From Promethearchaeota archaeon (lineage in GTDB: Archaea > Asgardarchaeota > Lokiarchaeia > Sigyniarchaeales > SOKP01): DNA of 64,000 nt. Positions 38,718-54,926 of the stretch are shown here, piece by piece. The DNA lies in assembly GCA_048938895.1 (NCBI GenBank), contig JBHLLU010000010.1, positions 34,001-98,000 on the forward strand. Reading direction: 5' to 3'. Position numbers and translations under genes: made by a program. Each line of letters begins with the position of its first letter. The first letter of the stretch is position 1. Below the pieces are notes generated by a model. It searched no databases. It saw only the letters and a program-made list of their open reading frames with translations, and was not told the DNA's origin.

Positions 38718-40025
38718 TTAATATTTTTTACTAAATTTTATGATTTCGTCTTGAATCTGGTAATTAGGAAGAACCAAGTTAGCAAAGCCTTTTTCCGCTG
38801 CAAATTTTGGCATCGCATATAGAATTGATGTTTCTTCAGATTCGGCAATCGTCTTACCCCCCAATTTTTGGATCGCACCTAATCCCTCAACACCATCTGA
38901 GCCCATCCCTGTCAACAATATGCCCATCGCTCTATTCCTATAAATTTTGGCAGCAGAAAAAAATAATATATCTATTGACGGCATGCAGTAGTTTATAGGG
39001 GCACTTTTATAAATTTTTATACATGGATTATTATTTTTAGTTGTGATTTCAATGTGGTTATCTCCAGGAGCAATATATACTGTTCCATTTCGAATATATT
39101 CACCATCAGATGCAACTTTTATATCTAATTCACATTCTAAATTTAAATTATCAACAAATGCTTCTGTAAAGTGTGCAGATAAATGCTGAACTATTAAAAT
39201 TGGTGAGGGGAATTTGCTTGGTAGTGCTTTTAATATGGAAGTTATGGTACGAGGCCCACCTACGCTAGCCCCAATCACTATAAGATTTGAAGTTAAGGTA
39301 ACTCCCTTAATGGGTGTCAAATCTGGTGTAAAAGAAGATTTTTTAACTGTTTTGAATTGATATTCTGGTTTTTTTTGTTCCTCTAATGGTTTGAATCTCG
39401 GCGGTTTTATTTCCTGATTTTTCAATTTTCTGAGATTACTTGAAATTTTGTTCTCTCTATTCTTAGTTTTGCCAATATCGATAATTTGTTGGTCTTCCTC
39501 TGATTCTTGGATAGGTGTGAGTGTGTTTAAATATCGCCCAAATTTAAAGATCTCATCAATAATTTCTTGTCTGAGAGATATAGGTTTTTTATATTCTTCA
39601 TTTTCTTTTTTAAATATTCTTTTTATTTGGGATTGAGATGCTAGAAGAACTTTCGAGAGTAATTCTTCCCGGAATTTTGGTAAATCTTTAGCACCTATAC
39701 CTCCTGGTTTTATTATATAATCAAATGCCCCCATTAAAAGTGCCTGGATAGAAGAATCAAGGTTTTTGGGACTTATGGCGGAAAGTATAACAGTAGGTGT
39801 TGGACGTTCTTCCATGATCATTTTAAAAGCGTCTAACCCATTCATTTTTGGCATCAGTAAATCTAAAACCAAGACATCTGGGCTAAATTTCTTAACAAAT
39901 TTAACAGCTTCCTCTCCATCCTTTGCATATTCTAAGATGTTTATCAAATCGTGACCTTTAAGAATTTGAGCAATATTTTTTCTTAAATACGCAGAATCAT
40001 CAGCAATTATAACATCAATTGACAG
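38718..40025 (-). CDS. cheB: chemotaxis response regulator methylesterase CheB (copy 1; probable CTG start at 40025)
   Basis: Receiver domain (IIADDSAY lies upstream of the track start; LDLLMP; DYIIKP) plus esterase GASVGGP, VQH, LTGMGSDG. Confidence 0.92.
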   Translation of the reverse strand: MSIDVIIADDSAYLRKNIAQILKGHDLINILEYAKDGEEAVKFVKKFSPDVLVLDLLMPKMNGLDAFKMIMEERPTPTVILSAISPKNLDSSIQALLMGAFDYIIKPGGIGAKDLPKFREELLSKVLLASQSQIKRIFKKENEEYKKPISLRQEIIDEIFKFGRYLNTLTPIQESEEDQQIIDIGKTKNRENKISSNLRKLKNQEIKPPRFKPLEEQKKPEYQFKTVKKSSFTPDLTPIKGVTLTSNLIVIGASVGGPRTITSILKALPSKFPSPILIVQHLSAHFTEAFVDNLNLECELDIKVASDGEYIRNGTVYIAPGDNHIEITTKNNNPCIKIYKSAPINYCMPSIDILFFSAAKIYRNRAMGILLTGMGSDGVEGLGAIQKLGGKTIAESEETSILYAMPKFAAEKGFANLVLPNYQIQDEIIKFSKKY

Positions 40026-40095
40026 CTAAATCTCCCATAGTAGCAAATTTGATTTAATAAATATTAGTGCACTCAAATTTATACTTATTTAAATA

Positions 40096-41055
40096 CTAAA
40101 ACAAGGTTGAAATTAAATATGTAAATAATTCATCTATTCCCTCACCTGTATATGCGGATGTTTCAAAAAAAGGAAAATGATATGCTTTTGCAAGCTTTTG
40201 AGCTCGTAACTTAAGTTCCTGACGATCCTTGGTTAAATCGATTTTATTCCCAACTAATATGATTGGAATGGATAGATCTTTGATAAAATGGCGAGATTCT
40301 TCGATCCAATTAGATATATTATTGAGAGTTTCTTGTTTGGAATAATCAAACAAAATAAGGATTGCATTTGAATAAGGATAGTAATACTTGCGAATTTTAG
40401 CAAATCCTCTTAATCCACCTAGGTCAAGGAGATATAAAAATAAACTATGCTCTTTAGATATTTGTAAAGTCTTATCTTTAATTGATATTCCTATAGTTGG
40501 TCTATAACTTTCTTGGAAATTTCCTCTACAATACATTTCAACCAAAGAACTCTTTCCAACTGATTCTGAACCAACGATTACTATTTTGTTAACATTATTG
40601 TTAGCATATTGAGCATTATGGTTAGGATTCAAAATTAGATCTCCAGTATTACTTAATTTTGGTAAATTAATTGAAGTTTCTTTATTATTGAGCAGTAATG
40701 AAATTTTTTCTGCCACAATATAAGCAAAAGGGATAAATTGATTTATATTAGAATATTGATCACCAACCAAAACAAAGATTGCAGGAGTTACTCTGCTTAA
40801 TTCTATATAAAATAATTGAAATTCATTAGTCGCAAGGGTACCACTTCCAAATGAAGTTTCTGTATACTTCTTTATTCGGTTTATGGTCTGTTCGAGAATA
40901 CCCATAATAGCACCAATTAATTCTTCATCAAACCCACCGATTGATTTTTTAGCAATAATTAGCCCATCTAAATCAACAACTAAAGCAGCTAAAAGATCTT
41001 GTGTTTCGCCTAACAGATTGGCAAGCAGTTCTTCCAATATTGTTATCTTTGACAT
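40096..41055 (-). CDS. roadblock domain plus Rab/Ras-like small GTPase fusion
   Basis: N-terminal LLAALVVDLDGLIIA...DEELIGA; G1 GSESVGKSS, G2 PTIG, G3 DLGG, G4 NKID, G5 ETSA. Confidence 0.9.
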   Translation of the reverse strand: MSKITILEELLANLLGETQDLLAALVVDLDGLIIAKKSIGGFDEELIGAIMGILEQTINRIKKYTETSFGSGTLATNEFQLFYIELSRVTPAIFVLVGDQYSNINQFIPFAYIVAEKISLLLNNKETSINLPKLSNTGDLILNPNHNAQYANNNVNKIVIVGSESVGKSSLVEMYCRGNFQESYRPTIGISIKDKTLQISKEHSLFLYLLDLGGLRGFAKIRKYYYPYSNAILILFDYSKQETLNNISNWIEESRHFIKDLSIPIILVGNKIDLTKDRQELKLRAQKLAKAYHFPFFETSAYTGEGIDELFTYLISTLF

Positions 41056-41061
41056 TTGTTT

Positions 41062-41736
41062 TTATAGGTTTATATCATATTTTAAATTTAGAGTTTTAAA
41101 TAAGGTTTTTAGAATATTGATACAAGGGATAGAGCACATAATGCAATTCAAATTAATTTCTGGTAGTGTAATTTTTGTTTGTATTATTATTAGAAAGTCT
41201 GAGGATCTAGAATATTTAGCAATTATTCCATTTAACATCGCTTGTAAAGTGTCAAGTGCTACAGTTGGGACATTAGGAATTAATTGAGTTGATAATAAAT
41301 CAGCTAACGCAGTAGTATAATGTCCAGTTAGAATATTGCCTATTTCTTTAATGATACTAAGAGAAATATCGTCTAGATCTTCAACTTTTACTATTTCTTC
41401 ATTAGGAATTTTTTGGTTAAAATTTAAAAGATTGATTAAATTAATGAGTGATTCTTTAGTGAATATTTGAATTATTGATAATTTTAAGTTGTAAGAAACC
41501 TCAGAATAAACCCCAAATACCTCAACTTGTGGTGTATCAAACACTTCAGGGACTTTCCAAAAGGGTATAATCTCCGCTGAAGTAAGAGATACTTCTATTT
41601 CACTATTAAGTAATTTTGAAAGAGCTGTGATTGCATGACCAGAACCAATATTTCCTAGTTCTTTTAGTGTATCTAATTGTTCTCTGGTTAATTTATATTC
41701 ATTTAGACGTACTAAATTTTTATTATTTTTATTCAT
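41062..41736 (-). CDS. cheC: CheC-family CheY-P phosphatase
   Basis: LKELGNIGSGHAITALS and IKEIGNILTGHY. Confidence 0.9.
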   Translation of the reverse strand: MNKNNKNLVRLNEYKLTREQLDTLKELGNIGSGHAITALSKLLNSEIEVSLTSAEIIPFWKVPEVFDTPQVEVFGVYSEVSYNLKLSIIQIFTKESLINLINLLNFNQKIPNEEIVKVEDLDDISLSIIKEIGNILTGHYTTALADLLSTQLIPNVPTVALDTLQAMLNGIIAKYSRSSDFLIIIQTKITLPEINLNCIMCSIPCINILKTLFKTLNLKYDINL

Positions 41737-41763
41737 CTTTTATTTCTCTTTTCTATTTGATTA

Positions 41764-42309
41764 CTATGAATAAACAAATTTACTAAAATCCTCTAATCCC
41801 GTTGATTTAAGATACAATGTAAGATCTTTAGAATCAAAGATTACGATTCTCCCTTTAGATCCCCCTGTATCTTCCTTTATAATTTCAATTTTCAATTTTT
41901 TCAATTCTTCTTTAATATATCCAATATTATCTATTCCTACTAAGTTATTATCTAAATCAAAAATTTTGGAGCCTCCTACAATTATTGCTTTTATTTGCTC
42001 ATATTTGGCACCACAATCTATTAATTCTTGCATTAAGAGCCTGGCAGATAAATTGGCATACTTATGAGGATAATTTATTACTTTTTTTGTAGCTTTGGGG
42101 AGTAGAATATGAGACATACCACAAATCTTATTTTTATAATCACAAAGAATTAATGCTATACAAGAACCTAACCCGTAAATAGAGAGTTTTGGGGAAACCT
42201 TACTTAACTTATACTTACCATTAATAATAGCATAATGACCTATTGGTAAATTAATTACCCCATCTTTACCAACCTCCTCAATTTTTCCTTTTTGGCACCT
42301 ATAGGTCAA
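41764..42309 (-). CDS. cheD: chemoreceptor glutamine deamidase CheD
   Basis: GLGSCIA, GMSHILLP, KYAN, GGSKIF, EDTGGSKGR. Confidence 0.92.
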   Translation of the reverse strand: MTYRCQKGKIEEVGKDGVINLPIGHYAIINGKYKLSKVSPKLSIYGLGSCIALILCDYKNKICGMSHILLPKATKKVINYPHKYANLSARLLMQELIDCGAKYEQIKAIIVGGSKIFDLDNNLVGIDNIGYIKEELKKLKIEIIKEDTGGSKGRIVIFDSKDLTLYLKSTGLEDFSKFVYS

Positions 42310-42326
42310 AATATATATACCTCTCT

Positions 42327-43472
42327 TTAATTATTAATATCGTTTGTAAATTTTTGAGCAAAATCAATCATTTCCCGACCAATTAAATAATTAGGAAGCA
42401 CAATTTTAGCTGCTCCTCTCTTAATAGCTGCTTTTGGCATACCATATACAATACAAGTTTCTTCGGATTCAACTATCGTTTTACCACCTGAATTTTTGAT
42501 TGCATCTAATCCTGCAGCTCCATCATCCCCCAATCCTGTCAAAAGTATACCCATTGCAGATTGTTTATAAATTTCTGCTACAGAAGAAAATAAAACATCA
42601 ACCGAGGGCATGCAAAAATTAACAGGTTTTCCTTTAAATATCTTAATAGATGGAGAATTATTTCTTAACACAACTTTCATGTGATTTCCACCAGGACTTA
42701 GGTATACCTTTCCAGATTCGATTTTTTCACCATCTACTGGGATTTTGATCTCAATATCACACACTTCATTCAATGATTTAGCAAACTGTTTCATAAAAAA
42801 GGCATCTAAATGTTGCACCATTAATATTGGGCAGGGGAAATTTCTTGGTATTGATCTTAAGATCGATTTTAGTGTTCTAGGTCCTCCGGTGCTGGTACCA
42901 ATTACTATAACATTCGATTTCAACTTTTTATTGTCTGGAAGAGCCGCTTTTAAGGATTTAATTGCAATTGAGTTGACAGATTCTTCAAAAATGTTCTTTT
43001 TTTCTGCCAAATTCGAGTTTAATTGAAAATCAATTGATTTTTTGATTAGATTATTTCGTTTCTCATAAGTTTTTTTTATTTTTCCAGCATATAAAATGCT
43101 TGAAACCAACTTCTTTTTAAATTTAGGAAATTCCTCTTCCCATAAACCACTAGGTTTTATGATAAAATCAAATGCACCAAGAAGTAAAGCTTGAACAGAA
43201 TTATCTAACGCTTCAAGTTGGAGTCCAGTAAAAACTATTGTTGGTATGGGATAGTGTTCTGAAAGGAACTTGAGAACAGACAAGCCATCAATTTCAGGCA
43301 TTATAAGATCTAATACAATTACATCAGGGTTATGATCACCGATCTTTTGGATTGCTTCTCTACCATTTCTGGCGATATCTATAACTTCAATTTCTTCATT
43401 AGATGATACCATTTCAGCAATTACCTTTCTTTGATATGCTGAATCCTCGGCAAGTAATACTCTTATTGGCAT
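42327..43472 (-). CDS. cheB: chemotaxis response regulator methylesterase CheB (copy 2)
   Basis: VLLAEDSAY, LDLIMP, GTSTGGP, VQH, PSVD, LTGLGDDG, YGMP. Confidence 0.93.
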   Translation of the reverse strand: MPIRVLLAEDSAYQRKVIAEMVSSNEEIEVIDIARNGREAIQKIGDHNPDVIVLDLIMPEIDGLSVLKFLSEHYPIPTIVFTGLQLEALDNSVQALLLGAFDFIIKPSGLWEEEFPKFKKKLVSSILYAGKIKKTYEKRNNLIKKSIDFQLNSNLAEKKNIFEESVNSIAIKSLKAALPDNKKLKSNVIVIGTSTGGPRTLKSILRSIPRNFPCPILMVQHLDAFFMKQFAKSLNEVCDIEIKIPVDGEKIESGKVYLSPGGNHMKVVLRNNSPSIKIFKGKPVNFCMPSVDVLFSSVAEIYKQSAMGILLTGLGDDGAAGLDAIKNSGGKTIVESEETCIVYGMPKAAIKRGAAKIVLPNYLIGREMIDFAQKFTNDINN

Positions 43473-43607
43473 TATCTGAAACTTATACTATTAATTTATT
43501 TTAAAATAAATTTAGTTTTGAGATGATAATTAATTCCTAAATATTCAGTTTGGAAGATAAAGCGTTCAACTATGTGAATATTTTTAATTTTAAACAATTT
43601 TTACTCA

Positions 43608-44156
43608 CTATCTTTCTAATATCTTTTCAATTTCGTTAAATCTTTGTTGTATATGTTCAATTGAATATTTGATGTGACTTTGCATTTCCTTTATTTCCAT
43701 TAGTATCTTTTTTATTCGAGATTTATCAGAATTTGATATTATCGTACTATCTTGAATTGAAGCTCTTGTATTAGATAGTGGTATTCTTGAATCGAATTCT
43801 AGTAAAGGTTCATTTTTGATTGAACTGTTTCTAGATTCTCCAGGATAAGTTAGATCAATCCTATTTTCTTTAATTTCTCGGTATATAACTCTGAAGTCAG
43901 ATGGTTCTAAACCTTGTTTTATTACTTCATATTTGAAATTATAGAATTTTTTTTTTGTTTTGAGTTTCCCAGCCCAATTAGCCGCCATATACCTATGAAA
44001 TAAACGAGAGTGACTGCCAGCCCAGATCCATATTAGTTTAATTTTCTTATCTATAATTAAGTATACTCCAGAAGGATCAAAAATCTTCTCTGGTTTTAAT
44101 TTTATGGTCTCTCCATCAACTTTATATATATAATCATAATAAGTTGTTTTTAGCAT
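43608..44156 (-). CDS. single gelsolin-repeat protein with C-terminal coiled coil
   Basis: FDPSGVYLIID...IWIWAGSHS...YMAANWAGKL...VIKQGLEPSDF matches the gelsolin repeat pattern; heptad tail. Confidence 0.75.
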   Translation of the reverse strand: MLKTTYYDYIYKVDGETIKLKPEKIFDPSGVYLIIDKKIKLIWIWAGSHSRLFHRYMAANWAGKLKTKKKFYNFKYEVIKQGLEPSDFRVIYREIKENRIDLTYPGESRNSSIKNEPLLEFDSRIPLSNTRASIQDSTIISNSDKSRIKKILMEIKEMQSHIKYSIEHIQQRFNEIEKILER

Positions 44157-44258
44157 TATTCATACATTCTTTTTTCTGGGCTTAATATTTTTTTTTCAAT
44201 ACCTTTCTTAAAATTGAAAAAAAAAATATAATAATTATATTTTTAGAAAAGAATAAAT

Positions 44259-46241
44259 TTAAGAGTAGAAATTTAACAGCGCGTCTAAGAGATTATGTAG
44301 AGTATCTAGACTTGGTATAAATAGAAATGTACCAACAATTTCAATGTCTTTAATAATGACACTTGTGGTTATTACTAAAGATAATTTCTTTAAAAGTCCA
44401 ATCTCTTCCTTTAAAATACTAAATAATCCGGTAGGCTTATCAACACTCATGTCAGGTGGTTCAGTCATTAAACGTATCCCTAATAAATCTCCTATAGCAC
44501 TAACATAATGACTTCCCAAAATATGTCCCAGTTCTGAAATCGCACTTTTATATAACTCTGGAAAATCGTCTGCTTTATTAATACTTTTTCTTAAATCGAT
44601 ATTCTTTTTATCAGGATCATCAACTATTATTGAAGTTATGTTAATTGCGTCTTTGATATTAAACATGGTAAGAACTGTAGCTCTAGTTTTTCCAATAATA
44701 TTACTCCAGGCAACTAGAAGCTTTTCATCTTTTGTACTTATTTTTTTAGCATAATCATCTAATTCTACCATCTCTACTGAAGGAATATTAATGTCAACTC
44801 TTTTATTAATCATTTGTGCTAATGCATTAGCTGCATTACCAGCACCTATATTTCCGACTTCTTGAAGTGCGTCCCTCTGGAGTTCTGTGAGTTTTAGTTT
44901 AGTAATATCTAAAATTTCTTGTTCTTGACTCTCTTCTAAACCACCAATTGAGAATTCTTGATCAATACCGAGTTTAGTAAAAAATATTTTTAATGTCTTA
45001 ATATCTGGTATAAAGAAGAAAATCCCTTTTAATTTCAAATCCGAGACTTTCACTGAAGTTTTAATTATTATTATTACATCGGCAATTGATTTGAGTTCTT
45101 GAGAAAGAAATTCACCTAACTCACCAGCATTACTCATTGCAAACTCAGGTATATCAATCATCAATTTCGTCTCTAATAAATCTGCCAAGGCAGATGCATA
45201 ATGACCTGCCATGATATTACCCATTTCAGTAATTGTTGAAACTGCAAAGTCATCAAGATCTTCTTTTGATGTTACCTTATTAGGATCTAATTTTGATTTT
45301 TTTCCTGCTAAGGATGCGATTAATTTCATTAAAGGTTTCATTTCGAAAATATTTAAGATTGTAGATTGAGAAGGCTCATCAATATGACAAAAAATACCGC
45401 ATACTCTCTCTTTAGGTCCCCCGAACTGATCTGCTAATTGATCAAAAGAAATTATTCCTACATCTGTTAGAGTGACATCAATTTTCTTCTTAATTAACCT
45501 AGATAGGGCTGTAACTGCATTTCCTGTTCCAATATTTCCCATTTCTTTGAGGATATCCTTTTGATCAGCTGATAAAATTAAATTATCCGTATCAGGTATT
45601 TTTGATAAATGTGATTTTTTCACATGTGTTTGAGGGAGAATAACAGTAGACTCTGTATGACTTATTTCTTTTTTCTTAGGCTCACTCAGTGTTTTAGGCA
45701 CAACTTTAGGTTTTTGAGGGATTATTGAAATTTTTTCAATCTTTTCTTCTTTTTTCCTTTCTGTAATTTTTGTATATGGTTGGATCAATGTGTTTAAATC
45801 TAATAGAATAAGTACTTCATCTTGAAAAACTCCTGTCAGTTTTATAAATTTAAAATCTATATTTGTTTTTATAATAGCCCCTTGTTGTTTAAAAATTGAA
45901 ATTGGAAATTCTCTTACACCGATTACAGAATCTACTAATAAAGCAATACGAAGATCACCCCATTCCAAAAGTAATATCCTTGAATGATTATTTAAACCAT
46001 AATCTATACTATCTGAACAAATATTATGTCTTAAAGAAATAATAGAATAAATTTCTCCCCTTATATTTATAACTCCAACAATAGATTTATCTGATAATGG
46101 TACGGGGATAATTGTATCTCCAGGCACATATATCTCTTTCACCTTTTCAACTTCAATGAGATATTTCTCACTTTTTATTTCTATTATAACAGCAGTTAAA
46201 TTTTCTCCATATTCCAGATTTTCATATTCACTTTCTATCAT
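44259..46241 (-). CDS. CheW-CheC-CheC fusion protein
   Basis: N-terminal CheW (VKEI, VPLS, GVINIRGEI, ALLVDSV), K/E/P-rich linker, then four CheC motifs (EMGNI, EMGNI, EVGNI, ELGHI). Confidence 0.88.
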   Translation of the reverse strand: MIESEYENLEYGENLTAVIIEIKSEKYLIEVEKVKEIYVPGDTIIPVPLSDKSIVGVINIRGEIYSIISLRHNICSDSIDYGLNNHSRILLLEWGDLRIALLVDSVIGVREFPISIFKQQGAIIKTNIDFKFIKLTGVFQDEVLILLDLNTLIQPYTKITERKKEEKIEKISIIPQKPKVVPKTLSEPKKKEISHTESTVILPQTHVKKSHLSKIPDTDNLILSADQKDILKEMGNIGTGNAVTALSRLIKKKIDVTLTDVGIISFDQLADQFGGPKERVCGIFCHIDEPSQSTILNIFEMKPLMKLIASLAGKKSKLDPNKVTSKEDLDDFAVSTITEMGNIMAGHYASALADLLETKLMIDIPEFAMSNAGELGEFLSQELKSIADVIIIIKTSVKVSDLKLKGIFFFIPDIKTLKIFFTKLGIDQEFSIGGLEESQEQEILDITKLKLTELQRDALQEVGNIGAGNAANALAQMINKRVDINIPSVEMVELDDYAKKISTKDEKLLVAWSNIIGKTRATVLTMFNIKDAINITSIIVDDPDKKNIDLRKSINKADDFPELYKSAISELGHILGSHYVSAIGDLLGIRLMTEPPDMSVDKPTGLFSILKEEIGLLKKLSLVITTSVIIKDIEIVGTFLFIPSLDTLHNLLDALLNFYS

Positions 46242-46272
46242 AATTTTTACCTTTTTCTATTTCCTCCGTTTA

Positions 46273-47124
46273 TTATTTCATCATAATTCCTTTCCAAACT
46301 AATTCTATCTCAGAATTATCTTCAGAAGCTTCAGTAAAAAAATCTGATTGTTTAAAAATTGAAATTTGACCCCCATTTGAATTTTGATATACATAATTTA
46401 ATAAGTCCTCAGAGCTTGTAAAGTTAAATCCTGCTAATTTTAATTCTGAATTATTGATAATTAAAAGATCTTCTCTGTTAAAAGAAAGATTTTCTTCAAT
46501 CCATTCAATCCACAACTCTGGAGTTATTTCTATATTATCAATCTTGATAGCTTCATCAATAGGTATATTTCTGAATGATTTACCTGCCGGAAAAATAATT
46601 CTATTTGGATTTAAATTTTCCTTCTTCACGTATTCGCTAATTTCTTTTAGTGAGTTTTTAAAACTATTCAATTCTAAAATATCATGACATGAAACAATTA
46701 TTTTTTCTTTTTCCTCTGTATCAAGAATAAAATCAATTGAATTTGCAAATTGGTTATTAATACTGATAGTTTTAATATTAAGCCCTAAATGATATTTAAG
46801 GTATTGATAAAATCGCCATTTAACTGCTAATTTATCGTTTATTTCCCTGCTGATAAAGATTTGAAAGAGTATTTTTCTTTGAGGCTCATCCAATTTTGAT
46901 AAATCTGCATATTTCTTACTGTCATTTCCTATTATATCAAATTTCATTGCAGATTTAGAGCTCGTTGCCTTAGATCCTTTATCTTTTTTATTAGATATAG
47001 TCTCTAAATCTCTTAAAAAATGATCGAATTCACTAACTGTGAATTTTGGCAGAATTTGTTCAATCAGATAGGTTATATATTCTTTTGATTTGTCTTGTAT
47101 TGTTTCATAAAACTGTAAATTCAT
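46273..47124 (-). CDS. hypothetical protein in che cluster, possible degenerate PD-(D/E)xK fold
   Basis: SIDFILD...IIVSCH resembles ID...ECK without the catalytic residues; GGAGG upstream. Confidence 0.6.
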   Translation of the reverse strand: MNLQFYETIQDKSKEYITYLIEQILPKFTVSEFDHFLRDLETISNKKDKGSKATSSKSAMKFDIIGNDSKKYADLSKLDEPQRKILFQIFISREINDKLAVKWRFYQYLKYHLGLNIKTISINNQFANSIDFILDTEEKEKIIVSCHDILELNSFKNSLKEISEYVKKENLNPNRIIFPAGKSFRNIPIDEAIKIDNIEITPELWIEWIEENLSFNREDLLIINNSELKLAGFNFTSSEDLLNYVYQNSNGGQISIFKQSDFFTEASEDNSEIELVWKGIMMK

Positions 47125-47173
47125 TATAATTCCTCCGATTTTTTTCTAGTAATTTTTGTTCTTTTTTTTTAAT

Positions 47174-49177
47174 TTATCCAATAAAAAACGATTCTAATTC
47201 TGAAAATTTAATCTCTTTTCCGGTTATATTTTTTAAATAGTACATTATCTCTCTTTCTTGATATGGTTGTAGAGTTTCAAGATTGAAAGATATTTTCCGT
47301 TCTCCTGATTTATCAGGTTTACTAAGTTTATATTCTAAATTTGAAGAAACTAATTCAAATGAATCTGGAAATGCATCAGTAATATTCACATCAGTTAATT
47401 TTATGTTAGAACCATTTGTTACAGTTATGTAAATTGCAAATTCATTAATATCCCTCCCAGGGAAAATCTCCTTTCCCGTCATTAACTTTCGGCGTTTATG
47501 AGTAATTTTAAGGGAAGATTTGTCAATATTATCAACTGCATCATTTATAACATAGTAATCTTTAGAATCTGCGTCAAAGAATTTCATATAATAAGATTTA
47601 ATCTCTATTGGAAAGTTATATTCTTTTTCATAATCTGGTGTTACTGCTGTTAAAGGGTATTTTACTTCTAAAAAGTCATCTACTCCAATCAAAACACTCC
47701 CATGATTAGTTTCTAAATTAAGATTCAATTCTAAAATATGATCATGAGCGGGATCATCATCATTGGGACTAATTTTTATTGAGATATCTTCAAGTTTTAT
47801 TTCACCCGAAGAATTTAAAAATTGAAAATATGAAATTTCCTTTGGGGGTAAAAAATCTGCAGGTATTCTTTCTTGAGTAATAATACCTTTTATTGGTAGA
47901 GTACCTTGATTCTTTACTATAAATTCTGTTTTTACTTTTGCTTCTTCAAATGACTTTATTTCACGTTCTTCAATATTCTTCTTGATCAAGGCATTAACTA
48001 CTTTAAATAAGTTATCTTCTACTAGCACAGTAATCATAGAATTTTTCTCAACTTTGTAATCCACTGAATATTCAACCTTTCTAGAGAAAGTTGGTTCTCT
48101 TTCATCTTGATAGTCAATATGTTCAGTCGTATAACTCTCATTGGGGACTATTTTTATCTCTCTTTCACTCAAATCTAATTCTAGCAACTTTTCTTTTTTG
48201 GATTTATCCATAATAAGAATTGAATTTAATTTCATCTTAAAATCACTATGATTTTCGAATACTAGAGAACAGTCCCAGTGATTAGGGTTATGTTCTTTTT
48301 CTGTTTTTCTAATTGCATGCATAGCGTGTGAATAAGCAGAGAAATGTTCAATTTCTACTTCTGATATGGTTTGATTCTTTAAATTGAATGAAATCTCTAT
48401 TCTCCCTGTTCTAATATCTTCTTTCCTTTTCGGAAATATATTTGCATGAAGAATTAATTCTACATGCTCCCCAGGATTTAGGTTTTTGATAGGGATCTCG
48501 ATATAATTATTAGTAATTTCAATATCTTTACTCAACCCTCCCTCAAATTCCAAATCATAGAAGTTATTTAAAAAATATTTCTTTAATTTCACATTTTCCA
48601 AAATTGTGGAAGAAACATTTTCAATATATATAGAAAATTTGACTTTATTTTCTCTTCCTAAAAGTAACATATAATTTTTTTGAGATGATTTATTTGATTC
48701 ATCAAAACTATCAAGTTTCACATAATCGATATCTTTACTCAAATTTTCTATATCTTCATTTACGGATATTATATCAGGTAAGATTTCTGAATTTACGATT
48801 TCATATTTTAGAATTTTATTTGAATTAGGTTCAAAGATTCCTAAATGCATTCCTTTTTCAGAATCTTGTTTATCAAATTGAGTACCTGTAAATTTTATAA
48901 AAGTATCCCAGATTCTATCCTTTAGCGAGTTATTAAACACAACTATGTTCCCATAACCAGCTAATGTTTTCCTGGTCTTATTATTTTGATAATGATACTC
49001 TAAAAATTCTTCATTAAGTATTAGTATCTCTGACATGGAACCAAGTGAGCTTGAATCTATTTTCTTCTCTCTCTCTTTTATTTGTACCATTTTCCCTACT
49101 TCTCTTATTGGCATACCAAGAAAACTTGAGCTATTACTTAACTTTAATTTGTCTTGGTTAACCTTCTTAAAACCCAT
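47174..49177 (-). CDS. cytoplasmic protein with about 5 tandem Ig-like beta-sandwich domains
   Basis: Repeated strand-N motifs (IVVFNN, IYIENV, LVFENH, FIVKNQG, ITVTNGS...TDAFP); no signal peptide or TM. Confidence 0.65.
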   Translation of the reverse strand: MGFKKVNQDKLKLSNSSSFLGMPIREVGKMVQIKEREKKIDSSSLGSMSEILILNEEFLEYHYQNNKTRKTLAGYGNIVVFNNSLKDRIWDTFIKFTGTQFDKQDSEKGMHLGIFEPNSNKILKYEIVNSEILPDIISVNEDIENLSKDIDYVKLDSFDESNKSSQKNYMLLLGRENKVKFSIYIENVSSTILENVKLKKYFLNNFYDLEFEGGLSKDIEITNNYIEIPIKNLNPGEHVELILHANIFPKRKEDIRTGRIEISFNLKNQTISEVEIEHFSAYSHAMHAIRKTEKEHNPNHWDCSLVFENHSDFKMKLNSILIMDKSKKEKLLELDLSEREIKIVPNESYTTEHIDYQDEREPTFSRKVEYSVDYKVEKNSMITVLVEDNLFKVVNALIKKNIEEREIKSFEEAKVKTEFIVKNQGTLPIKGIITQERIPADFLPPKEISYFQFLNSSGEIKLEDISIKISPNDDDPAHDHILELNLNLETNHGSVLIGVDDFLEVKYPLTAVTPDYEKEYNFPIEIKSYYMKFFDADSKDYYVINDAVDNIDKSSLKITHKRRKLMTGKEIFPGRDINEFAIYITVTNGSNIKLTDVNITDAFPDSFELVSSNLEYKLSKPDKSGERKISFNLETLQPYQEREIMYYLKNITGKEIKFSELESFFIG

Positions 49178-49240
49178 TTCATTTTCCTCCGAATTTTTAT
49201 TAATTCTGTAAAATTTTTGATTATTTTTATAAAAAAACCT

Positions 49241-51325
49241 CTAATTAATTTTATTTATCATAGATATCTCGTATTCTGATGATTGTTCTGATATAATGTT
49301 CAACACATCTAAGATGAGACAAATTGAACCTTCACCTGTAATAGTAGATCCCAAAATATCTCGAGAGTCGGAATAACCTGAGGCAAATGGTTTAACAACT
49401 ACATCTAATTGTTGAAGTTGTTTATCTGCAACCAGGATTGCCGACTGATTATCATCCTTTTGACACCATATTGCTACTCGTTTAAATGAATTTTCATCAT
49501 TTAGTTCCACCATTCTTAGGTGTTGGTCTAGATTTATTACAGGTATTAATTTTGAATCTACTTTATAGTATTGTTTACCCTCAATGTATTCTACATTATT
49601 CTGATTGAAAAAGTATATCTGTTTTATATTCTCTGTTGGAATCGCAAATAAATCCTGTGAGACTTGTATTAGTTGAGCCCTTAGAATTGCCCTTGTAAAT
49701 GGCACCACAAGAGTAAATTTGGTTCCACTATTTTCTTGTGATTCTATAAGGAAATCTCCACCTAATTCTTTTATTTTTTCTGCTACTATAGCTAATCCCA
49801 TACCTCTTCCTGAAATAATATCAGCATCACTTAAGGTTGAGAATCCTGGCATTAGTATAAATTTATTCAGGGCTTCATTAGTAAACTCTTTAACTTCATT
49901 AGAATCATAATAGCCTTTATCAATAATCTTTTGTCTAACATTATCATAATCAATCCCACTTCCATCATCTTCTACTTCAATATATATGGATCCTGCTTTT
50001 CTATAAGTTTTCAGTCTCAAAATTCCTAATTCATTCTTACCTTTTTTCTTTCTCTCTTTTGGTAATTCAATTCCATGATATATAGCATTTCGTATTAAAT
50101 GAACCAGCGGAGAATTTAGTTCTTCTAATATTTTTCTGTCAATCTCTACATTCGTCCCTTGTAATATTAGTCGTAATTTTTTCCCTGTTTCATTTGCTAC
50201 ATCTCGGACAAGTCTTTTATACTTTCTGAAAGTTGAATCGACTCTTACCAATTTCAAATTAAAAAGAATTTCTTGAATATCCAAAAAAGGTTTATCCATT
50301 TTATCAAAAAGCCTGTTAATTGCTCTATCTTGTCTATCTTTTAAAAGCTGGCTTATGTGATTTTTCATTATTACTAATTCCCCAAAATAATTCATTAGTT
50401 CCTCTAATTTTTCAATGTTAACTTTGACACTCGTTATCTTTACATTTTCATCAGAATAATCTTCTACAATATTAGTTACTCGGTCAAACCCTTCATCAAT
50501 GACTTCTACTTCATATAAACTTTCTTCTTCAGATTCATGACTCGTAGTTTCTACTTGTTCCCTCTCCCATTTAGTCTTTAGATCAGCAATTATATCTCTA
50601 AATTCTTGTGGTTTCATTGTAGAAATAACAATATTCTCAATTTCCAAAATTTCATCTAAAATATGTGATATTTCGGACTTATTAGCTTGACTGATGTAAA
50701 AGATTTCAAATTCATTTTTCAAAATTGCTTTTTCTAAAGATTCTGGAGCGGGATTGGTCCAACATATCTGCCCTTTTCCATTCAAAGCCCGGAATATAAT
50801 AAAAAGTCTTACTTTTTTAAATACACAGGTATCTTCTAAACGAATATAAATTTTATAGGGCTTCCTCTGATTATCCTCTAATATCTTTATAATTTCTTCA
50901 GTAGAAATTGGTTGGATAAAAGTTATATCATACTCTACTTCAAAAGTATCAAAACTTCCTTTTATATCATCAACAAATTTACTATCAATATCTGATAAAT
51001 CTCCTGCTTTAACTTTTTTTAAGACATTCCGAAGTACATCTAAACTCTCAAAAAGCATATTAATAAAATCTGTACGCTTTTTTGGTGATACTTTTTTATC
51101 TTTTGTATTATCTAAAAAGGTTTCAAAGTGATGACAAAATTTTGAAAGATTTTCAAATCCTGCCATAGCAGTGAGTCCCTTTAGAGTGTGAAATGTAAAA
51201 AAAAGTTCCTGAATGGGTTTAGGATTTTCTGGATTTTCCTCTAAATTAAGAATCTCATCCTCTGTCTTCTGAATAAGATCTTCTGATTCACTTATGAAAA
51301 GTTTAATATCGTCGTTAGATGCCAC
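49241..51325 (-). CDS. cheA: chemotaxis histidine kinase CheA
   Basis: HPt FHTLKG, P2 region, LVHLIRNAIYHGIE, DDGSGID, GFST, GRGMGL, C-terminal CheW-like domain. Confidence 0.96.
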   Translation of the reverse strand: MASNDDIKLFISESEDLIQKTEDEILNLEENPENPKPIQELFFTFHTLKGLTAMAGFENLSKFCHHFETFLDNTKDKKVSPKKRTDFINMLFESLDVLRNVLKKVKAGDLSDIDSKFVDDIKGSFDTFEVEYDITFIQPISTEEIIKILEDNQRKPYKIYIRLEDTCVFKKVRLFIIFRALNGKGQICWTNPAPESLEKAILKNEFEIFYISQANKSEISHILDEILEIENIVISTMKPQEFRDIIADLKTKWEREQVETTSHESEEESLYEVEVIDEGFDRVTNIVEDYSDENVKITSVKVNIEKLEELMNYFGELVIMKNHISQLLKDRQDRAINRLFDKMDKPFLDIQEILFNLKLVRVDSTFRKYKRLVRDVANETGKKLRLILQGTNVEIDRKILEELNSPLVHLIRNAIYHGIELPKERKKKGKNELGILRLKTYRKAGSIYIEVEDDGSGIDYDNVRQKIIDKGYYDSNEVKEFTNEALNKFILMPGFSTLSDADIISGRGMGLAIVAEKIKELGGDFLIESQENSGTKFTLVVPFTRAILRAQLIQVSQDLFAIPTENIKQIYFFNQNNVEYIEGKQYYKVDSKLIPVINLDQHLRMVELNDENSFKRVAIWCQKDDNQSAILVADKQLQQLDVVVKPFASGYSDSRDILGSTITGEGSICLILDVLNIISEQSSEYEISMINKIN

Positions 51326-51353
51326 ATAATCACCCCATTATTTAACAAATTTA

Positions 51354-51749
51354 TTATTTTTTATTAGCTGTCTTATTCTTTAGAATACGGTCCATTACCT
51401 CAAGAATTTGTTCAGACTTGAAGGGTTTCTGAATGAAGTCCTTTGCACCTTTTTTAGCTGCTTCCAAGACTAAGGCTTCTTGTCCTAATGCGGACACAAC
51501 GACGATTAATGCACTAGGATTAATTTTTAAGATCTCTTCTGTTGCTTCAATACCACCTTTCTCGGGCATCACTAAATCCATGGTAACCAAATCAGGATTT
51601 AACTTTTTATATAAGGATATAGCTTCAACTCCATTAGCTGCCTCGCCAACTACCTCGATTTGTTCCATCTTGCTAATAATGGCTTTTAGCATATTCCTTG
51701 TAAAAGCTGCATCGTCTACTATCATAACCCTTTTTTTATCGTTTGTCAT
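51354..51749 (-). CDS. cheY: chemotaxis response regulator CheY
   Basis: VMIVDDAAFTR, TMDLVMP, VSALGQ, FIQKPF (Bacillus/archaeal type). Confidence 0.93.
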   Translation of the reverse strand: MTNDKKRVMIVDDAAFTRNMLKAIISKMEQIEVVGEAANGVEAISLYKKLNPDLVTMDLVMPEKGGIEATEEILKINPSALIVVVSALGQEALVLEAAKKGAKDFIQKPFKSEQILEVMDRILKNKTANKK

Positions 51750-51776
51750 TTAATCAACTCCATTTTTATTTTAAAT

Positions 51777-52319
51777 TTAATTTTTTGTCAATGATGTTTT
51801 ATCCTGTTGGATTTGAAATTCTTCAATTTCAGTCAGAATCTTTCCTAACTCAAGCATAATCCTTGGTCTTTCATTGAAATTTATGACACCTTTAATATAT
51901 TTCATAGCTACACTGGTTTGAAAAATAGGACTTAATGCTTTAATTTCATTGCTATCAATGTGATCTATATTTATAATGCGATCGACGTAAAACCCAACAA
52001 GGTTTTTATCCACTTTCAAAATAATTATATATTTTCTTGTGTTACTATTATTTTCTTCTTCCATAGAGGACTTTTTTGAGCGATACAACATATATTCATT
52101 TAAATTTAATTTTTTCTTCAAATTAACAATGTGTATGATTTCTCCTCTATAGTTATAAATTCCATCTATGTATTCCAAGCTTTTCGGCAATTTTCTTATT
52201 TGTCCCGCTTGTATTATTTCTTTAACATCAAGAAGGTCAATAACAAATTGCTCCCATCCAATTTGGAAAATAAGGATGGATACTTGATTTAACTTTTTAT
52301 ATTCTTGGTCTTGTATCAT
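51777..52319 (-). CDS. cheW: chemotaxis coupling protein CheW
   Basis: DVKEII, LPKSLEYIDGIYNYRGEII, GFYVDRI, IKGVI. Confidence 0.9.
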   Translation of the reverse strand: MIQDQEYKKLNQVSILIFQIGWEQFVIDLLDVKEIIQAGQIRKLPKSLEYIDGIYNYRGEIIHIVNLKKKLNLNEYMLYRSKKSSMEEENNSNTRKYIIILKVDKNLVGFYVDRIINIDHIDSNEIKALSPIFQTSVAMKYIKGVINFNERPRIMLELGKILTEIEEFQIQQDKTSLTKN

Positions 52320-52337
52320 TTTCTTTTTACCTCTTTT

Positions 52338-53159
52338 CTATATTAAAAAATATTGATTGATTTTTTCTTCAAAACAATTAAAAGGGGTTATATCCCCGTT
52401 GAAATCCCTTAAGTGATCTTTGTATTGATAAAGAAACTCGTCAGCTAATAAATACATATATCTTTGTACTAAGGAGGTCATATTTTCTACTAAAAAGGCG
52501 AAGATTACATCGCTCTTTGAAATAACATAAAATTGTTGATTACCAAAGTTAATTTCTTTTAGCTTTGCTCCTGTTTCCTCTCCGATAATTGTATTTGAGA
52601 ATGATAATAAGGCGGAAATAAAGCCACCAATGTGGACTTCATGATCTGCAATTTCTGATCTATCCTTATTGATTTTTGATATATATGGACTTCCCGCCAC
52701 ACCTATAATAAAAATTGCTATGATCCCGTCAGTTTTTGGAATTTCCACAGCATTATCAAAATCTTCGATTATTTGCAAGACAGGTTCGTTTAACTGAAAT
52801 TTTCGATTAATTTTCCTGGAAAGGAAATATAATTTAGAAAAGTTTACTGAGCTGTCTTTCTTCTCCATATATATTATGACTAATATATCTTGATTATGAT
52901 TTTCAAAATAATGGATGAAAAGCGTGAATTTTTCTAAGGGAATAATTGAATTTCCCTGTCTTTTATTTACAATTTCTTTTTTATATAATTCAATCACATT
53001 TTGAATAAGTGGTACTCCTATTCCTTTTTGAAATAAAACCTTAAATTTAGCTTCTATATCTGTTTGTGAAATCTTTACCAATCCGATCCCTAATATTTCC
53101 ATAATTATTGGGTTGTCCTTAGAATTTTGATAGTTTTCCATGATTATCATTTCCTTCAT
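52338..53159 (-). CDS. longin/roadblock-fold protein (probably two domains)
   Basis: C-terminal IFIIGVAGSPYI...IGGFISALLSFS...LKEINFG...DEFLYQY...FNGDITPF is typical of Asgard longin-like domains. Confidence 0.7.
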   Translation of the reverse strand: MKEMIIMENYQNSKDNPIIMEILGIGLVKISQTDIEAKFKVLFQKGIGVPLIQNVIELYKKEIVNKRQGNSIIPLEKFTLFIHYFENHNQDILVIIYMEKKDSSVNFSKLYFLSRKINRKFQLNEPVLQIIEDFDNAVEIPKTDGIIAIFIIGVAGSPYISKINKDRSEIADHEVHIGGFISALLSFSNTIIGEETGAKLKEINFGNQQFYVISKSDVIFAFLVENMTSLVQRYMYLLADEFLYQYKDHLRDFNGDITPFNCFEEKINQYFLI

Positions 53160-53176
53160 TCCTAAGATTGTTTATA

Positions 53177-53374
53177 TTATTCCAATAGCCTAGATTGCAT
53201 TTCATCAGCTAATTTTCCTAATTTGTTTGCGGTTGTTGTAATTTCTTCCATTTGTGAGAAATAATATTTAGGAGTACCTGTCCTAACCTCTTTAAAGATT
53301 ACAATGACTAGAAGGAAGTAGTATGAATTAATTTTGAAATTTATTCCTATTACTAATGCTTTTCCAATAATCAT
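53177..53374 (-). pseudogene. probable remnant of a methyl-accepting chemotaxis protein
   Basis: Tail SQMEEITTTANKLGKLADEMQ resembles an MCP C-terminal methylation helix; only 65 aa; first in the che cluster. Confidence 0.45.
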
Positions 53375-53751: not shown

Positions 53752-54414
53752 TTGACGTTACAAGATTCCGTAAATAATAAAACAGAAGATTTTTTCGAAG
53801 AAGTGTCAATAAGATGCCCTAAGTGTAAAACAGGTCAAAATCTTAAAATTCCTGTTAAAGTTATCAACCAAAGTAAACAATTAACTACTGTTTCAATACC
53901 TTCAGGTTTAAATTGTGAACACAGTTTTCAAGCCTTTGTAGATAAGAATTTTAAAGTAAGAGGATACCAAACAGTGGACTTTGAATTTTCACATTTAGAA
54001 CTATATGAGAGTACCCTCTTAAAAGATGAAGAAGAAGAAACTACAAAAAGTACTGACTTCACTTCAATGCCTATTTTCCAAAAAATAATCCATTTACTAA
54101 GAGATTATGTTGATGATAAAGAAGTTATCGGGAGTGGGATATTTAGTGAAGAAGGAAAGGTCTTATATTCCTCGCTACCTCAAACAACTTTATTTAATAC
54201 AATGAAGGAATTTGAGGTTAGAAATGAAAAGAATTTAATTAGCGTTAAAAAGATGTATTTAGAACTAGAAAATAATGAGAAATTTATATCTAAATTTATG
54301 GAAATAGATGGTGTAAGGTTCAATCTTGTGTTAATGTTTTCCTTCAGAACCAAGTTTGGAATGGGTAATTTAATTTTGAGGGATCTTTTAAGAAAACTTC
54401 AGAAGATAATCTAG
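53752..54414 (+). CDS. Zn-ribbon plus roadblock/profilin-like protein
   Basis: CPKC...CEHSFQAFVDKNFKVRGYQ; C-terminal VIGSGIFSEEGKVLYS...KFGMGNLIL. Confidence 0.7.
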   Translation: MTLQDSVNNKTEDFFEEVSIRCPKCKTGQNLKIPVKVINQSKQLTTVSIPSGLNCEHSFQAFVDKNFKVRGYQTVDFEFSHLELYESTLLKDEEEETTKSTDFTSMPIFQKIIHLLRDYVDDKEVIGSGIFSEEGKVLYSSLPQTTLFNTMKEFEVRNEKNLISVKKMYLELENNEKFISKFMEIDGVRFNLVLMFSFRTKFGMGNLILRDLLRKLQKII

Positions 54415-54671: not shown

Positions 54672-54926
54672 ATGTCGATTATGGATGATAAAATTAATAG
54701 AAAAATAAACCTTGTTAAGAATATCTTGAAAAATGTTTACGAAATTTTAGAACTATTCAAACCATTGCTAGAAATAATGTTAAAAATGGAAGAATCTGAA
54801 CGATTTAAGAAAAATGGTGTTTTTCAAAAAGCAGCGTCTCTATTTGGTGAAATTTCCGTATTGTGTAAAGAAATCGAAGATGATACTCCGGCACTAAACC
54901 TCTTTTTAGATAACCTTGGTAATTAG
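54672..54926 (+). CDS. small helical hypothetical protein
   Basis: 84-aa ORF with GTGA upstream. Confidence 0.55.
   Translation: MSIMDDKINRKINLVKNILKNVYEILELFKPLLEIMLKMEESERFKKNGVFQKAASLFGEISVLCKEIEDDTPALNLFLDNLGN

Follow-up and report, generated by a model that had tools for sequence, protein, structure and literature searches.

Chemosensory (Che) pathways drive rotary filaments, pili or second messengers, and directed movement based on actin is viewed as an invention of eukaryotes, in which small GTPases run it. In Myxococcus xanthus, the Frz system acts on the MglA GTPase and on MglB, a Roadblock-fold GTPase-activating protein. Small GTPases usually have proteins with longin or Roadblock domains as partners; actin is the target of gelsolin domains, and the gelsolins of Asgard archaea bind it. 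Here we describe a che gene cluster in which genes of these kinds are brought together, at positions 38718-53374 of a 64,000-nucleotide stretch of DNA from a Promethearchaeota archaeon (contig JBHLLU010000010.1, positions 34,001 to 98,000; this whole stretch is referred to as the window). Within a single operon, the che genes are accompanied by a Ras-like GTPase fused to a Roadblock domain, a predicted tandem-longin protein and a putative gelsolin, and these three eukaryote-type genes (longin, Roadblock-Ras and gelsolin) share the inheritance and the losses of the che genes.

According to the available part of PMC9834061, che genes occur in 27 of 97 Asgard metagenome-assembled genomes, and 'Ca. 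Lokiarchaeum ossiferum' has che genes and putative chemoreceptor arrays. Roadblock-GTPase fusions and longin domains are common in Asgard genomes, and in MK-D1 the genes for GTPases as a rule do not share an operon with genes for Roadblock or longin proteins (available part of PMC10933270). A full-text literature search that did not cover supplementary files found no report of che genes linked in Asgard archaea to genes for a gelsolin, a GTPase or a longin protein, in agreement with an earlier sequence-only reading of this DNA, which knew of no such description. The cluster is apparently an undescribed, conserved variant of the chemosensory system with a lineage-specific accessory set.

A che operon with eukaryote-type genes

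The open reading frame (ORF) listing of the window places 13 ORFs and the decayed stub of a methyl-accepting chemotaxis protein (MCP) gene at 38718-53374, all on the minus strand, as are the cluster coordinates given below. The gene order is MCP stub-tandem-longin-CheW-CheY-CheA-DUF11-U-CheW-CheC-CheC-gelsolin-CheB-CheD-CheC-Roadblock-Ras-CheB, where U is a protein of no known family, and the gaps between the 13 ORFs, taken from the coordinates, are 18, 27, 28, 63, 49, 31, 102, 135, 17, 27, 6 and 148 bp. The co-oriented Che and accessory cluster seen by the sequence-only reading is borne out, and Pfam confirms the Che core and names nine of the 13 ORFs without doubt: CheW, CheY, CheA, the CheW-CheC-CheC fusion, CheB, CheD, CheC, the Ras-family protein and the second CheB. 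The cluster is the single Che operon of this Lokiarchaeial genome, which measures 4.65 Mb and is 98.7% complete with 7.5% contamination. A look-up of RNA runs for positions 42300-47200 of the window returned none.

Co-occurrence and gene order in relatives

Distribution was scored in 400 species-representative genomes of the phylum and in a near-relative sample of 41 genomes at genus and order level, the genus itself being represented by 24. Across the 400 genomes, the gelsolin orthogroup, scored by profile at E<=1e-25, was present in 41, always as a single copy. Every one of these belongs to the 47 genomes that carry U, and gelsolin was found in 0/353 genomes without U; in this sample the orthogroup is confined to cluster-bearing genomes. 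The U profile itself matched only those 47 of the 400 genomes, all belonging to families f1, f2, f3, f4 and f7 of one class. Where the contig with the locus ends early, the gelsolin orthologue lies at the very edge of another contig (G203, G184), and in G204, G214 and G225 it is on another contig about 0.7-1.1 kb in from the end. Among the near relatives, a CheA orthologue is present in 11/41 genomes and gelsolin in 9/41, with all nine falling within the 11.

Gene order was tabulated by tblastn in loci from 46 of the 47 U-bearing genomes. The counts cover loci with a close U orthologue, and a locus was considered informative when its contig reaches the position concerned. These loci share the core order (MCP)-longin-CheW-CheY-CheA-DUF11-U-CheW·CheC·CheC-gelsolin. 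In 36 of the 37 informative loci, the gelsolin gene comes directly after CheW-CheC-CheC, a count that leaves out six loci ending too early and one genome with a fragment only; the exception is G168, with the order W-Y-A-DUF11-U-W-C-R-B. Gelsolin-linked loci span at least nine genera (g1, g6, g14, g15, g17, g21, g22, g23, g30) at 42-85% identity, and in many loci of the genus the gelsolin gene is flanked by che genes because CheR stands on its other side. Of the 35 loci informative for the longin gene, 32 have it upstream of CheW; it is absent in G191, G168 and the rearranged G006. Of the 30 loci informative for the Roadblock-Ras gene, 23 contain it; in two more, G179 and G191, it is found on the same strand about 14 kb further downstream. 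In G179 (L076, C18), the Ras-CheB pair stays together though parted from the cluster, and the 14-kb interval contains a universal-stress-protein gene and an A/V-type ATPase operon, of which Pfam confirmed subunits I, c and A; the interval in G191 (L077, C7) holds ORFs of matching sizes, of which only a Na/Ca exchanger was confirmed. In five of the more distant loci (G278, G282, G276, G277, G254), the GTPase gene is the next matched gene after gelsolin; the two are about 1.2 kb apart in G254 and within about 20-80 bp of each other in the remaining four. Extra receiver-domain genes come after the GTPase gene in distant loci. Dozens of genomes retain the gene order, even where protein identity has fallen to about 40%. 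The linkage between che and accessory genes that the sequence-only reading had proposed from this one window thus extends across relatives.

The cluster has been lost repeatedly within the genus, where CheA is present in 10 of the 24 genomes. Deletion scars were found in two genomes. In G001 (L086, C419), the 220-aa gene that neighbours the cluster was kept and the longin gene is joined to the 3' end of CheB2; in G004 (L024, C66), the 5' third of CheA is joined to the 3' half of CheB2. Both deletions took gelsolin along with the che genes. A separate observation concerns G006, a single-contig genome in which the cluster is present without longin in two halves about 1.08 Mb apart (L019/L048 and L020), ordered (truncated CheW)-Y-A-DUF11-U and WCC-gelsolin-B-D-C-Ras-B, reflecting rearrangement or misassembly.

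A second type of che locus is found in G170, G026 and G039, with the order W-Y-B-A-D-DUF11-U-WCC-R and no gelsolin or longin match with the hidden Markov models of this analysis. ORFs of 155 and 199 aa that follow CheR in this type (L066) were considered as relatives of longin and of the 220-aa protein and set aside as leads only, the matches being too weak (against the longin C-terminal half, hmmsearch E 2.8e-5 among 8 sequences and hhalign probability 6.9%; against the 220-aa protein, 2%).

The accessory proteins

The first gene (52338..53159) encodes 273 aa, with the true start probably at codon 4 or 7; one orthologue has a stop at codon 3. PDB sequence searches with this protein gave nothing useful, and its assignment as a tandem-longin protein comes from its predicted fold. 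The AlphaFold2 model, built from 17 orthologues (pLDDT 77, pTM 0.67), has two beta2-alpha-beta3-alpha domains (beta-beta-alpha-beta-beta-beta-alpha units). When compared by VIA-align with about 48,000 solved chains, residues 142-270 matched the longin domain of Sec22 (Z 13.1, rmsd 2.6, 117 aligned) and then VAMP7, synbindin, sedlin and Fuzzy, while residues 13-136 matched the longin domain of a Lokiarchaeota Roadblock-Longin protein (Z 10.5) and then C9orf72-SMCR8, FLCN-FNIP2 and GATOR1. The longin domain called from the sequence is thus seen twice in the model. In Foldseek, the first match is the Rab23 exchange factor Fuzzy-Inturned (E 1e-4), and the top matches are the multi-longin Rab guanine nucleotide exchange factors (GEFs) Fuzzy-Inturned and Mon1-Ccz1 (E 1e-4 to 5e-4); tandem PAS/Cache domains gave E-values similar to those of the GEFs. 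The likeness to exchange factors is one of fold only, and nucleotide exchange by this protein is putative.

A longin protein was also seen at contig C99:4648-7474 (L085), where one strand carries a short MCP (276 aa), a HisKA-receiver protein (248 aa), a 154-aa longin protein with 37% identity to the C-terminal half of the cluster's tandem-longin, and a 139-aa ORF. The 139-aa ORF had no Pfam match and matched the Roadblock half of the GTPase weakly (E 1.3e-4, 11.2 bits, in an 8-sequence database). This pair of longin and 139-aa genes also occurs in G012 and G013, both without CheA, and was for that reason not counted as support for a link between receptors and longin.

The GTPase gene (40096..41055) encodes a 319-aa Roadblock-Ras-like fusion, with a Pfam Ras match at E 4e-38 and a weak N-terminal Roadblock domain that falls below the Pfam cut-off in the window copy. 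Among the orthologues, Ras was matched in 20/20 and Robl_LC7 in 17/20 (best E 7.7e-6), which upholds the roadblock/GTPase call of the sequence-only reading. The closest proteins of solved structure are Rab39B, Rab23 and Rab22A (E about 1e-24). The G1-G5 motifs GxxxxGK[ST], PTxG, DxxG, NKxD and ETSA are conserved in the 20 orthologues. The residue after DxxG is never Gln, being L, I, K, A or F in 20/20, so that GTP hydrolysis probably depends on a partner. The C-terminus has no Cys in 12 of the 15 aligned rows that reach it, including the window copy, and in three rows a Cys lies 2, 6 or 7 residues before the end; the other five of the 20 rows stop short. The missing Gln and the mostly Cys-free C-terminus indicate that the protein is not a classical Rab.

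The single-domain gelsolin-like protein (43608..44156, 182 aa) had no Pfam match as a single sequence, and three Asgard gelsolins ranked first when that sequence was searched against the PDB (E 7e-4 to 7e-3). A profile of 21 orthologues gave the Asgard protein ProGel as the best PDB match (7c2f_B, E 4e-6), followed by 2DGel3, villin, Heimdall 2DGel and CapG; the first four profile matches are all of the gelsolin family, at E 4e-6 to 2.4e-4. PF00626 was matched by 13 of the 21 orthologues at E<=1 (best 2e-4). These matches provide modest support for a gelsolin-homology domain and are in line with the earlier gelsolin call. The alignment has three segments, a highly conserved domain at residues 1-110, a variable linker and a conserved amphipathic helix at about 145-182, and the regular hydrophobic spacing of this helix suggests a coiled coil.

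Two further accessory genes lie between CheA and the CheW-CheC-CheC fusion. The larger (47174..49177, 667 aa) encodes a DUF11-type beta-sandwich protein, recognized as a multi-Ig protein by the sequence-only reading. DUF11 was matched by 18/18 orthologues (best E 4e-14), with the window copy just under the Pfam cut-off; neighbours in the ESM Atlas are DUF11 proteins (a lead only), and the PDB sequence search gave nothing useful. The protein is probably cytoplasmic, as no N-terminal hydrophobic stretch is seen by eye. Matches to the adaptor-complex mu-homology family (one of the 18 orthologues, E 1e-5) and to adaptin C2 (two of them, E 0.005) hint at adaptin-like beta-sandwich domains. The smaller gene (46273..47124) encodes U, 283 aa, with a possible restriction-endonuclease-like core. 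U has no PDB sequence match, and its AlphaFold2 model (pLDDT 78) yields weak structure matches, with Can2/Card1 best in Foldseek (E 0.024) and mostly restriction-endonuclease-like folds in VIA-align (best Z 6.8). No accessory genes of Loki-class che loci are retained more widely than DUF11 and U, which were found in every such locus seen, and the DUF11 gene adjoins CheA or CheD in both locus types.

The Che core and its receptors

The Che core is complete. CheW (51777..52319; Pfam E 1e-25) is encoded by the sole tblastn match in the genome at E<=1e-6, and CheA (49241..51325), also present in one copy, has the Pfam Hpt, P2, H-kinase_dim, HATPase_c and CheW domains. CheY (51354..51749) is a single receiver domain (Pfam Response_reg, E 4e-26) in which D12, D13, D58, S86 and K108 are invariant across 25 orthologues; its set of catalytic and phospho-acceptor residues is complete. 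Residues 85-111 are almost wholly invariant in the same set, with exceptions at 92, 95 and 107; judging by receiver-domain topology, this segment would form the alpha4-beta5-alpha5 face. The 660-aa CheW-CheC-CheC fusion (44259..46241) matches Pfam CheW (E 3e-21), CheC (E 2e-37, in three stretches) and CheX. The remaining core genes encode CheB copy 1, a receiver-methylesterase protein (42327..43472; CheB_methylest, E 4e-59), CheD (41764..42309; E 4e-19), CheC (41062..41736; E 1e-21) and CheB copy 2, which adjoins the GTPase gene (38718..39947; CheB_methylest, E 6e-57). Among the response regulators that Pfam found in the cluster, none but CheB has an output domain that binds DNA or acts as an enzyme.

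Two CheR proteins above the cut-off are encoded in the genome, both on contigs other than that of the cluster, one being a 343-aa frame on contig C53. In many genus-level loci a CheR gene of 303-343 aa lies between gelsolin and CheB (for example L043:13527-14555 and L059:7380-8288); in the window this interval is a 135-bp gap without CheR. Seven MCP genes are present elsewhere in the genome (eight matches, two of them in one frame), so that the receptors, CheA with its domain set, CheW, CheY, CheR, CheB, CheD and CheC of a Che two-component system are all encoded.

The MCP stub is a 65-aa ORF (53177..53374) located 17 bp upstream of the longin gene. It has no Pfam match and no match in genus-level relatives at E 1e-5. 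Its last ~30 residues match the seven MCP genes of the same genome (tblastn E 3e-4 to 0.014), which makes it a true remnant of an MCP gene, as in the earlier call of an MCP stub. Intact MCP genes occupy the stub position in more distant loci, those of G031, G169, G254, G276, G277, G278 and G279, and in G191 an intact MCP gene lies upstream of CheW.

Classical motility output and actin

Profile searches of the genome, which could miss very divergent homologues, gave no match to CheF (PF04283), archaellin (PF01917) or the T2SSF platform (PF00482), while control archaea were matched; the CheF-archaellum taxis pathway was not found. The sequence-only reading had listed no cheF, arl, pilus or cheR gene in the 64 kb, and there is no such match on the window's contig, C85. 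Extended to the whole genome at 98.7% completeness, that statement holds for CheF, archaellin and the platform protein, but CheR and the MCPs are present elsewhere. Archaellin was found in 0/41 relatives and 0/47 cluster genomes; above the cut-off it occurs in only 3/400 phylum genomes, none of them cluster-bearing. CheF was detected in 1/400 genomes, G039, whose che locus is of the second type, without gelsolin.

One genome of the same order, G171 (6.0 Mb, single contig), has six archaellin-family matches, three of them in tandem, and three CheA-like genes at 28-29% identity; the regions concerned are C1:5215287-5217284 and 859980-865961. It has no match to U or to the Che-linked gelsolin.

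A minimal type-IV-filament-like locus was found in the genome on contig C91 (12081-18321; L079), beside ribosomal protein and Cdc6/Orc genes. It consists of a T2SSE-family ATPase (722 aa, E 1e-16), a 507-aa ORF, a V4R-domain protein, a Peptidase_A24-like gene and, adjoining the ATPase, an ORF of 140 aa whose hydrophobic N-terminus is pilin-like. Of the 24 genus genomes, 21 have the ATPase (13/14 without CheA and 8/10 with CheA), and since it is found irrespective of CheA it does not track the cluster.

Five actin-family genes are encoded in the genome, which provides a substrate for a gelsolin. The best of them is on contig C99; the weakest of the five (E 1e-42) is on the cluster's contig at C85:12245-13345, about 60 kb away.

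Neighbouring genes

The flanks of the cluster are housekeeping or unrelated genes, EF-2 and a PurN-like gene on one side and, on the other, ORFs of 220 and 84 aa and the gene for a PAS histidine kinase, and these chromosomal flanks are common within the genus. Recent horizontal transfer of the cluster is unsupported, as the flanks are shared in the genus and GC content is even over the whole window, with the cluster region inside the window's range. The divergent 220-aa gene (53752..54414, plus strand) encodes a protein with a Cys-x2-Cys ... Cys-x-His motif. It is a conserved neighbour of uncertain membership, lying upstream of the cluster in 11 of the genus-level loci compared; G181 has two copies, one on each side of the cluster, and the G276 locus has a partial match at one end. 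The protein was considered as a Roadblock protein and ruled out by profile comparison with the GTPase family (probability 0.5%). The 84-aa ORF (54672-54926, plus strand) is conserved just upstream of the cluster in the genus. Neither ORF matched a Pfam family.

Discussion

The gelsolin, longin and GTPase proteins are, with high confidence, working parts of the Che system. In the mechanism we propose, a receptor would signal through CheA to phosphorylated CheY (CheY-P), which would act on the longin/Roadblock-Ras switch and through it on gelsolin and local actin remodelling. The output of CheA and CheY would in that case be a small-GTPase switch and not a rotary filament. Roadblock-Ras would serve as the switch with tandem-longin as a GEF-like partner, and the gelsolin, possibly pairing through its C-terminal helix, would pass the state of the switch to the cells' own actin filaments. 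Chemoreceptor signals could thereby bias protrusion growth, cell shape or crawling. The Che-to-cytoskeleton interpretation of the sequence-only reading is partly supported by these results. Two conditions that it had named as refuting it were checked by computation, a lack of synteny between accessory and che genes in relatives and a genome with CheF plus a full archaellum, and neither was found. We infer a flow of signal from Che to GTPase, gelsolin and actin tentatively, giving it a little less than an even chance. The full picture is somewhat unlikely as a whole: it holds that the array steers actin-based protrusion or crawling via a Ras-like GTPase with Roadblock and longin regulators and a dedicated gelsolin, in a system that predates eukaryotes and replaces the rotary filament.

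Complex prediction of CheY with the Roadblock-Ras, tandem-longin and gelsolin alignments gave ipSAE values of 0.00 and 0.01 relative to a mark of 0.32, which speak neither for nor against contact. Several observations weigh against the proposed mechanism. The gelsolin homology has modest E-values, 4e-6 at best, and actin binding by this protein is putative. Of the 30 informative loci, four lack the GTPase gene (G003, G208, G031, G181) and that of G024 retains only a remnant; G208, a 76% complete genome, has no GTPase copy above 31% identity. Che loci of the same class without a gelsolin or longin match exist (G168; G170, G026, G039), so a Loki Che system can do without these genes. What is kept universally is the accessory pair of DUF11 and U, retained even in those loci, which weighs against gelsolin and longin holding the whole output. 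The genome also has its own filament-like locus, with the T2SSE-family ATPase, the pilin-like ORF and the peptidase gene. Finally, linkage gives no direction, and the cytoskeleton could position the receptor array instead.

This reverse arrangement, although unlikely, fares best among the alternatives. In it, longin, Roadblock-Ras and gelsolin would place or anchor the array, and the output of CheY-P would lie elsewhere, perhaps with DUF11 and U. The position of longin fits such a role, directly after the MCP gene at the operon head in seven distant loci and after the remnant here, as does the limitation of gelsolin and longin to one locus type. DUF11 and U are present in all Loki-class che loci, as would be expected if they formed a conserved output or belonged to the array. 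Bacteria are known to position chemoreceptor arrays or poles by means of GTPases, but a gelsolin that anchors an array is without known precedent, and the restriction of gelsolin to Che genomes fits either direction.

An output unrelated to motility (in cell-cell interaction, development or gene expression, for instance), with gelsolin and the GTPase sharing only regulation with the che genes, is distinctly unlikely. Chemosensory systems with alternative functions are common in bacteria, and the receiver-domain genes that follow the GTPase in distant loci could belong to a pathway of this kind. For Loki archaea, communication, interaction and motility have been named as functions that che genes may serve (available part of PMC9834061). 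The cluster, however, encodes no DNA-binding or enzymatic response regulator except CheB, and the exclusive co-occurrence of gelsolin argues for shared function over shared regulation alone.

We consider it improbable that the Che system steers a type-IV-filament-type or unrecognized surface structure, with the eukaryote-like genes as accessories or passengers. The C91 locus supplies candidate parts, including the ATPase, the pilin-like 140-aa protein, the 507-aa ORF and the Peptidase_A24-like gene. Type IV filament components are scattered across many Asgard genomes and 'Ca. L. ossiferum' has an archaellum (available part of PMC13705601), which leaves room for a divergent filament. Against such a target stand the distribution of the ATPase, independent of CheA, and the lack of a T2SSF platform or archaellin match in the genome; passengers, moreover, would not be expected to stay embedded at 42-85% identity over nine genera. 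A chance neighbourhood or miscalled domains are very improbable: although the window gelsolin and Roadblock domain fall below Pfam cut-offs, profile and fold evidence backs the calls, and chance is contradicted by synteny in dozens of genomes and by the 41/41 co-occurrence, a perfect phyletic association in this sample.

If the parts work together, the cluster would provide the first cellular context for one Asgard gelsolin, one GTPase and one longin among dozens of paralogues, and a biochemically testable candidate for the origin of signal-guided cytoskeletal behaviour. Were the Che system to drive actin-based behaviour, a chemotaxis-to-cytoskeleton pathway would have been assembled before eukaryotes. 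On a cautious reading, a Loki-specific Che accessory set of DUF11, U, tandem-longin and gelsolin could stand in the place of CheF.

Comparison with known systems

The cluster resembles the archaeal CheF-archaellum systems of Halobacterium and Haloferax in having CheA with a P2 domain, CheW, CheY, CheB, CheD and CheC, together with CheR and MCPs in the genome. It differs in the lack of a match to CheF, archaellin or the platform, and in the presence of DUF11, U, tandem-longin, gelsolin and Roadblock-Ras inside the operon. With the Frz system of Myxococcus it would share a Che-type pathway, a Ras-superfamily GTPase, a Roadblock domain and an output other than a flagellum-type rotor, a likeness of logic and not of membership. 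In contrast to Frz, the GTPase here is Ras/Rab-like by its best matches, fused to the Roadblock domain and encoded inside the che operon; gelsolin and tandem-longin stand alongside it, and the window has no extra regulator of the FrzZ or FrzX type.

The gelsolin-like protein has, as do the Asgard ProGel and 2DGel proteins (7c2f, 7c2h, 7whf, 7whg), a hydrophobic strand followed by W-x-G and a long helix. Identity to these proteins is low, and the window protein differs in having one G domain, a linker and a conserved C-terminal helix, and in belonging to an orthogroup restricted to Che genomes.

Che genes in Loki archaea, and the arrays that such archaea probably build, are documented for 'Ca. 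L. ossiferum' (available part of PMC9834061, in which a linkage to gelsolin, GTPase or longin genes is unmentioned). That organism has the archaellum noted above (PMC13705601, in the part available), whereas the cluster genomes have no archaellin match. The contrast with MK-D1, as described in the available part of PMC10933270, is one of gene organization: here the GTPase and longin genes lie in one conserved operon with the che genes.

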